DNA from: Escherichia coli
Lineage (GTDB): Bacteria; Pseudomonadota; Gammaproteobacteria; Enterobacterales; Enterobacteriaceae
Assembly: GCF_003790525.1 (NCBI RefSeq)
Contig: NZ_CP033633.1
Strand: one strand, 5' to 3'
Length of the DNA: 64,000 nt
A program made the position numbers and the translations under genes. The notes below the pieces were generated by a model. That model was not told where the DNA came from and searched no databases. It saw only the letters and a list, made by a program, of their open reading frames with translations. Of the stretch, positions 20,819-21,778 are shown in pieces. Within the stretch, counting starts at the first letter, position 1, and the number at the start of each line of letters is the position of its first letter.

Positions 20819-21730
20819 TTACCAACTATTACTGTCCAGAATCTCCACGGCTGAAATATATAGCGGAGAAACTCCACTGCCTTCAGGAAAACGGACAATG
20901 ACATCATGATTATTACTGGACATCGTATAACCAGCCTCAACATAATTCCCTGTCTCAGAAATAACGCCATCTTCCTGGATTTCGGGATTAGACCGAACTG
21001 GAGTATTCATCTGACCCACACTTAATACCAGGTCCGGTAGATTTGGTGATACAGGGGCACTGTAAACATCTTTAATATTGGTTCCCGGACGACTCCGGTC
21101 CGGAACTGGAACGGCATCCACTACTGGCACTGTCATCGGAATACCTCCGATAATAGCCATATATTGTGTACCATTCTGCATAAGGTCCGTCAGACGATAT
21201 TTTACCGGTACATTATTACCCGCTGCTGGTAACTGGCTGGCAGGGATATCCGTTACCTGCTCCAGTTGCTGTGTAACCATAAGACGAATAATTTTTTGCT
21301 CATTTCCGGAAGCAGGCTCCAGACGGGCAAAAGAAACAGCAGCCGGGCGAGACGGTTCTGGCAAACCACCACGTAAACCATTTTCAAGAACTGTTCGTGC
21401 AGCGGAAACTTTCTCGTTTCCCCAGGGGCTATGCACACTGACAGACCATCCCGACCAGTCTCCCTCTTCAAGTTCCTTATCAAGAATAATCCGGCGAATA
21501 ATTCCAGGAAAAAGAACACTTTGTACAAGTGCGATACCTTGTGGGCTGTAATCCCCCCATCCCGGAGGCATGGATGGAGCGAGACCTGATGAGCCTCCGG
21601 GTTTCACATCACCGCCCGGAATTCGTCCTGTTGACGGCCACACAACCATTGTGTCCCCGTAATCAATACCTTCTGTCGGTACACTACCTTCATTATCACT
21701 CATAGAAAACCTCTTTGACTTTAAAAACAA
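20819..21730 (-). pseudogene. cba: Colicin B activity gene, N-terminal about 300 codons, truncated by IS1 copy C
   Basis: MSDNEGSVPTEGIDYGDTMVVWP... with the DTMVV TonB box and glycine-rich translocation domain; frame ends at the IS1 boundary, pore-forming domain absent. Confidence 0.6.
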
Positions 21731-21747
21731 TCAATTAAAATTAAATA

Positions 21748-21778
21748 CTGTACATATAACCACTGGTTTTATGTACAG
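21748..21778. promoter_or_regulatory. Overlapping double LexA (SOS) box of the colicin promoter
   Basis: CTGTACATATAACCACTGGTTTTATGTACAG, two overlapping CTGT-N8-ACAG-like boxes upstream of cba. Confidence 0.55.

Follow-up and report, generated by a model that had tools for sequence, protein, structure and literature searches.

In a functional colicin B cluster, the immunity gene cbi lies immediately downstream of the colicin gene cba, in convergent orientation. ColBM plasmids that had lost colicin B activity were reportedly described by Christenson and Gordon in 2009 (Microbiology 155:1645), and the common allele in that work is said to have kept cbi together with a ~130-bp remnant of the cba 3' end. 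Colicin genes carry two overlapping SOS boxes, and colicins B and M lack a lysis gene, with no known route for colicin B release (PMC2994835). That ColBM plasmids can lose colicin B activity is likewise familiar (cited in PMC2994835). A toxin-less ColB fragment comprising residues 1-341 binds FepA and, when added from outside, is imported in a TonB-dependent manner, with residues 17-21 serving as the TonB box for import (PMC8546555). At the genetic level, IS1-truncated cba and cmi have been published for the plasmid p2246-CTXM (PMC5052281). Furthermore, in the adjacent deletions promoted by insertion sequences, the IS element stays in place while the target duplication is lost (PMC11708052).

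Here, we analysed a 64-kb stretch of Escherichia coli DNA (64,000 nucleotides), which we refer to as the window, and in which a fragment of cba ends at an IS1 element. We are confident that this locus is a decayed ColBM cluster, in which IS1 inserted into cba and a deletion then started from the IS1 end, leaving behind a most likely neutral remnant with an SOS promoter. The host plasmid is a conjugative E. coli plasmid of the IncK2/Z type (IncB/O/K/Z group), of the kind found in poultry.

The remnant is a truncated cba ORF of 294 codons plus a stop on the minus strand (20819..21703), delimited by the sequence, the ORF list and a protein match to PDB 1rh1. It starts with the ATG at 21703 and stops at 20819. 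The earlier sequence-only reading had recognised in its beginning the N-terminus of colicin B with a DTMVV TonB box. This holds, as residues 1-293 match colicin B (PDB 1rh1) at 293/293 positions (E 2.6e-193) and DTMVV occupies residues 17-21. The part of the ORF that belongs to cba spans 880 nt (21703-20824), that is codons 1-293 and the first base of codon 294, and represents the front 57% of the colicin B gene. The IS1 terminal repeat contributes the rest of codon 294 (Trp, TGG) together with the TAA stop (20823-20819), and the boundary, marked here by a stroke, reads ...AAT AGT T/GG TAA TGA CTC C... The frame thereby ends at the boundary of IS1 copy C, as had been proposed, and the "about 300 codons" given for it become exactly 294. 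A longer version of 303 aa, reported by the ORF tool, starts at an upstream in-frame TTG (21730). We rejected this TTG and take the ATG at 21703 as the real start, because the colicin B match begins there. The predicted product has 294 aa, a mass of 31.3 kDa and a pI of 4.5.

Pfam places the Cloacin family (PF03515) on residues 1-293 (E 3.9e-100), covering model positions 1-261 of 277, with the final 16 positions missing, and the same scan of the remnant returned neither a Colicin pore-forming domain nor a tRNase domain. Intact ColB, by comparison, consists in Pfam of Cloacin (1-309) and the Colicin pore-forming domain PF01024 (331-506). A scan against NCBIfam gave a family match for neither the remnant nor intact ColB. 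In RefSeq (PGAP), equivalent remnants carry the name "colicin-like bacteriocin tRNase domain-containing protein", and equivalent copies are marked as incomplete pseudogenes. The "tRNase" label follows the name of PF03515, which here matches the receptor/translocation domain, and is misleading.

Taken at face value, this RefSeq label would point to colicin D (cda), which shares the N-terminal import module with colicin B, as the source of the fragment. Over residues 1-311, ColB and ColD share 95% identity, and the promoter architecture is common to both. However, not only is the remnant identical to ColB at all 293 residues, but its DNA is also 100% identical to the cba of ColBM plasmids, whereas the best cda match reaches 92.5%. 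Sixteen of the first 311 residues differ between ColB and ColD, including N4Y, D17H and T18S, and most of these differences fall within the 293 residues that are retained. Moreover, cbi-cma-cmi adjoin the remnant in sister plasmids, and the label reflects the name of PF03515, not a tRNase domain. The alignment to both colicins, which the sequence-only reading had suggested as a check, thus settles on colicin B, since the match to ColB is 100%, against 95% between ColB and ColD. With the full ColB match, the lack of a tRNase domain and the 95% identity between the two colicins, a colicin D origin can be ruled out, its probability being next to nil.

The regulatory DNA of cba is preserved upstream of the remnant. 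Over 21856-20824, the window equals intact cba (CP099004) base for base, and the five differences between the two are all located upstream of this stretch, at 21857-21913. A putative cba promoter (21784..21812, minus strand), read from the sequence and identical in intact cba, lies immediately upstream of the SOS boxes. It has a perfect -35 element, TTGACA (21812-21807), separated by a 17-nt spacer from a weak -10 element, TAATTT (21789-21784). A generic sigma-70 scan did not report this promoter, because its -10 element matches the consensus at just 3/6 bases. A Shine-Dalgarno-like AGAGG (21710..21714, minus strand), likewise read from the sequence, is found 6 nt upstream of the ATG and is invariant in the alignment with intact cba and cda.

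Two LexA boxes overlap between the promoter and the gene. Box 1 (ATCTGTACATAAAACCAGTG; 21761..21780, minus strand; heterology index 7.56) has the core CTGT-N8-CCAG at 21778-21763, and is identical in intact cba, with its core conserved in cda. Box 2 (TACTGTACATATAACCACTG; 21746..21765, plus strand; heterology index 8.23) has its core at 21748-21763, conserved in both cba and cda. Base 21763 is common to the two 16-nt cores (21763-21778 and 21748-21763), and the pair forms an overlapping double box that matches the span (21748-21778) for which a double LexA box had been claimed. The heterology index rests on 19 chromosomal LexA sites taken from the literature rather than on a curated file, with colicin sites excluded, and the scores of both cba boxes (7.6 and 8.2) are within the range of these chromosomal training sites. 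In the whole 64-kb window, only three positions score 8.3 or better, namely both cba boxes and 27004-27023. First-order Markov simulations lead to an expectation of 0.03 sites at such a score per window, and a pair at 15-nt spacing appeared in 0/300 of them, so that scoring of the LexA sites, another check proposed at the outset, upholds both boxes. The double-box promoter architecture is also conserved in colicin D (cda), and many small Col-type plasmids match the promoter region at 79-88% identity over roughly 130-195 nt. Because the regulatory DNA is identical to that of intact cba, SOS control was likely retained, and the remnant probably remains under LexA repression until DNA damage triggers its transcription.

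Transcription from the cba promoter would run antisense into IS1. Just past IS1, on the cba strand (minus), a consensus scan picked up a terminator-like hairpin followed by a T run (20011..20038), in a scan whose count was no higher than the shuffle expectation. This putative hairpin would restrain transcripts of the cba promoter from continuing antisense through the integrase and ccd genes. Single substitutions in the regulatory DNA were observed in sister plasmids whose cba is disrupted by IS1. In p135-1, the -10 element is changed from TAATTT to TAACTT (window position 21786), and the first base of the CTGT in SOS box 1 is substituted (21778), while pEC22-3 has a substitution in the flank of SOS box 2 (21747). 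These changes may represent either the onset of decay after the death of the gene, or sequencing errors.

The best LexA box of the window (TACTGTATATACATACAGCA, 27004-27023, heterology index 0.74) is located elsewhere, ~20 nt upstream of a minus-strand operon with DinI-like, umuD and Y-family polymerase genes (impCAB-like), as identified by collinearity with NZ_CP029742. By this assignment, it is a predicted second SOS-controlled unit on the plasmid, about 5 kb from the cba remnant.

The element at which cba breaks off is an IS1 of 768 bp, copy C (20056..20823, plus strand). An exact search located both of its ends (GGTGATGCTGCC... at 20056 and GGTAATGACTCC... at 20823), in agreement with the earlier view that cba is cut at this copy. 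IS1 copy C adjoins the remnant, is transcribed opposite to cba, and carries insA (20111-20386, 91 aa) and an insB frame (20305-20808, 167 aa), both of normal lengths. Exact end searches revealed three IS1 copies in the window, A (8358-9125), B (10610-11377, inverted) and C (20056-20823), and copy C differs from the two others at 5 and 7 positions. Copies A and B, inverted, bracket a gene of the endonuclease/exonuclease/phosphatase family (9580-10443 in pE15-3). Their arrangement resembles a composite transposon, and no matching 9-bp duplications are found around either copy or the pair. Around copy C, a 9-bp target duplication is absent as well, its flanks being TCATAATTG and AACTATTAC.

Only a part of the ColBM cluster is left. 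When ColB, Cbi, Cma and Cmi were searched with tblastn over the whole 64 kb, only ColB 1-293 was found. Compared with the intact cluster, the window lacks codons 294-511, which encode the end of Cloacin, the linker and the pore-forming domain, as well as cbi, cma and cmi. The sequence-only reading was thus correct in stating that the pore-forming domain is gone and that no immunity gene follows, as tblastn detects no ColB residue beyond 293 in the window, Pfam finds no pore domain, and Cbi has no tblastn match in the 64 kb. A relocation of cbi-cma-cmi next to one of the other IS1 copies was rejected, since tblastn finds none of them in the window. As the main biological consequence, the plasmid would no longer confer production of colicin B or M, or immunity to either of them.

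The state before the loss can be reconstructed from related plasmids. In the intact ColBM cluster of CP099004.1, everything from the promoter through both SOS boxes and the ribosome-binding site to codon 293 is identical to the window, and the cluster occupies the same position, between the truncated integrase copy and the integrase-ccdBA genes. In contrast to this cluster, the window is without codons 294-511, cbi, cma and cmi. An intermediate state is seen in pE15-3 (NZ_CP119749), p135-1 (NZ_CP080261) and NZ_CP029742, three IncK2/Z poultry plasmids, in which the flanking backbone is 99.9% identical to the window. They carry the same IS1 in the same orientation and at the same insertion base, but keep the 9-bp duplication, the cba 3' part, cbi, cma and cmi, all of which the window has lost. 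In both NZ_CP029742 and p135-1, the IS1 in cba is flanked on either side by GTAATAGTT, a 9-bp target duplication corresponding to cba nt 872-880 (codons 291-294). Past the IS1, cba reads ...TTAAGCCAGCGC (GACAGTAATAGTTTAAGCCAGCGC), as in the intact gene, and cbi, which is present in the sister plasmids, comes next with cma and cmi. The duplication on both sides and the intact resumption of the gene mark a simple IS1 insertion in these plasmids. In NZ_CP029742, an IS1414 with astA (EAST1 enterotoxin) is additionally inserted between cbi and cma (9288-10496), so that the ColBM cluster is a repeated target of insertion sequences in this plasmid family.

The closest relative of the window is pE15-3, and the two are collinear. 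Positions 1-20055 of the window correspond to 1-20055 of pE15-3 with 6 mismatches, and positions 20056-25000 correspond to 22816-27760, again with 6 mismatches. Over window positions 1-25000, the sole structural difference is a segment of 2,760 bp (pE15-3 20056-22815) that is absent from the window. Its first base adjoins the IS1 end, and it contains the second duplication copy, 656 nt of the cba 3' part, cbi, cma, cmi and a 90-bp spacer. What IS1 removed, a question that had been left to a check of homologous plasmids, is hereby answered for the comparison with pE15-3. In the true progenitor, the segment may have measured 2,760 bp, or 4,083 bp if IS1414 was present as in NZ_CP029742. The comparison with pE15-3 also defines the deletion junction (20055..20056), at which the IS1 end is joined to a site that follows the stop codon of the integrase at a distance of 82 bp. 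A single alignment across this junction was found neither in PLSDB nor in 5,426 complete E. coli genomes, where the matches were two-piece or partial.

The integrase in question is a complete site-specific integrase gene downstream of ccdAB (19164..19973, plus strand), identified from the ORF list and by collinearity, and represents the far border of the deleted ColBM module. On the upstream border of the module, a 5'-truncated second integrase copy (21817..22377, plus strand), identified from the ORF list and by repeat alignment, is divergent from cba. The incomplete integrase at that position is annotated as a pseudogene in pEC22-3. The 3' part of the integrase, together with downstream DNA, forms a ~536-bp direct repeat (21915-22450 and 19511-20042, 94% identical) on either side of the ColBM module site, and a matching 536-bp repeat pair, with 96% identity to the copy in the window, flanks the intact cluster in CP099004. 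This suggests that the cba-cbi-cma-cmi module may originally have been acquired by recombination at the integrase locus next to ccdAB. The neighbourhood also hosts three type II toxin-antitoxin pairs within 17 kb, RelE/ParE with an RHH antitoxin (2059-2618), VapBC (13999-14642) and CcdAB (18638-19163), beside an iron ABC transporter/MFS cluster (about 4064-8104), as indicated by collinearity with pE15-3.

From these comparisons, we propose a decay in two steps. To begin with, a simple insertion of IS1 duplicated GTAATAGTT and split cba near the end of the receptor-binding/translocation domain, a state seen directly in the sister plasmids. Afterwards, the IS1 end facing the cba 3' part would have transposed intramolecularly to a target 82 bp beyond the integrase gene and so caused an adjacent deletion. 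In this step, the 2,760 bp with the second duplication copy, the cba 3' part, cbi, cma and cmi were removed and IS1 was kept; the loss is evident from the comparison, and the mechanism is one that we infer. Codons 1-293 are left over, together with the ribosome-binding site and the LexA-controlled cba promoter with its pair of overlapping SOS boxes. An IS1-promoted adjacent deletion is indicated by a gap that starts at the IS end, an IS that is retained and a duplication that is lost, and progenitor types with the simple insertion were found. Furthermore, pF1022-2 (NZ_OY754359) and two relatives share the IS1/cba junction of the window and have lost cbi-cma-cmi from the IS1 end, but their far endpoint is about 131 bp further, inside the 3' end of the integrase (a gene of 783 nt, compared with 810 nt in the window). 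Since this endpoint differs from that of the window, the same IS1 caused at least two deletions, and the window and pF1022-2 represent two independent deletions from one anchored IS1.

Homologous recombination between direct IS1 repeats, one being the copy in cba and the other a second copy 82 bp downstream of the integrase, would have had the same outcome. A single IS1 without a target duplication is the end product of either mechanism, and the plasmid is rich in IS1, of which the window holds three copies. However, neither PLSDB nor the 5,426 complete E. coli genomes yielded a single alignment with an IS1 at the 20055/20056 site, and no intermediate with two IS1 copies was seen. Moreover, the second deletion in pF1022-2 has another endpoint and the same anchored IS1 end, as repeated adjacent deletions produce. 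We therefore consider recombination between IS1 copies unlikely. Recombination between the 536-bp integrase repeats was rejected, as the promoter and the cba 5' end would also have been lost. Under an adjacent deletion, the 5' end is retained because the deletion ran away from it, outward from the other IS1 end.

The remnant could encode an N-terminal fragment of 294 aa and 31 kDa, which would include the TonB box and the greater part of the FepA-binding domain. We infer that such a fragment is unable to form pores, does not require an immunity protein and lacks a dedicated release route. The sequence-only reading had envisaged a receptor-binding, translocation-competent but non-toxic product. 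This idea is reasonable because ColB 1-341 binds FepA and enters the cell, and by analogy it is plausible for the present fragment, if supplied from outside. Most likely, the product of the remnant is a neutral pseudogene product, and nothing indicates that selection maintains it.

If the fragment had a role, ColB 1-293 made after SOS induction would be released and occupy FepA on kin or competitors, where it could act as a decoy against colicins B and D or interfere with enterobactin uptake. The promoter, operator, ribosome-binding site and coding sequence show no damage, the toxin-less ColB 1-341 binds FepA and reaches the periplasm (PMC8546555), and the promoter and 5' end are kept in two independent lineages of IS1 truncation. 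Yet, the second of these lineages keeps only 197 codons, which are unlikely to fold as the intertwined receptor/translocation domain, and the direction in which the deletion ran is enough to explain why the 5' end was kept. In addition, the p135-1 substitutions in the -10 element and the first CTGT of box 1 look like regulatory decay, the last 16 Cloacin positions are missing from the remnant, and a lysis gene is absent, with no known release route (PMC2994835). A signal of purifying selection is absent, the copies being nearly identical, and RefSeq treats them as pseudogenes. It is thus very improbable that the fragment is kept as a useful FepA decoy or as a meddler in uptake, and an equally slim chance is given to the promoter into IS1 coupling IS1 activity to DNA damage. 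If true, a decoy would make up in part for the immunity to colicins B and D that was lost, or disturb the enterobactin uptake of competitors. If expressed and active, the fragment would be a natural toxin-less FepA ligand.

The IS1 junction of the remnant is not restricted to this plasmid. PLSDB contains 13 plasmids with the cba::IS1 junction of the window, which was also found in 16 of the 5,426 complete E. coli genomes, with carriers almost all from chickens and with IncK2/Z or IncI-gamma/K1 replicons. The uninterrupted insertion site is covered by 166 PLSDB records. Among all matching records, 144 have an identity of at least 95%, which is the cba range, and the colicin D matches lie near 90%. 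In comparison to these 166, IS1 at codon 294 (the 13 PLSDB plasmids) and IS1 at cba nt 591 (about 42) indicate that decay of the ColBM cluster through IS1 is common. The feature described here is ordinary, already catalogued gene decay. The exact deletion endpoint is absent from the two collections searched (PLSDB and the complete E. coli genomes), which makes it a new allele of a known process. It matters little beyond a correct annotation. Nevertheless, pE15-3 and the window form a clean before/after pair, in which IS1 inactivates and then erases the ColBM cluster on IncK2/Z poultry-associated plasmids.

A published parallel is p2246-CTXM from Shigella boydii (PMC5052281), which stands for the lineage of about 42 PLSDB plasmids, such as pEC22-3. 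As in the window, cba is truncated by IS1, the promoter and the 5' end are kept, and the deletion extends toward the integrase. The two lineages differ in the insertion point, which is at cba nt 591 in the p2246-CTXM lineage and leaves 197 codons, and in a cmi remnant that survives there beyond the IS1. The nt-591 lineage, exemplified by pEC22-3 (2742-4295), is the more widespread of the two and is seen in E. coli, Klebsiella, Salmonella and Shigella. The allele attributed to Christenson and Gordon reportedly retains the opposite end of cba to the one retained in the window, and both amount to a loss of colicin B production.
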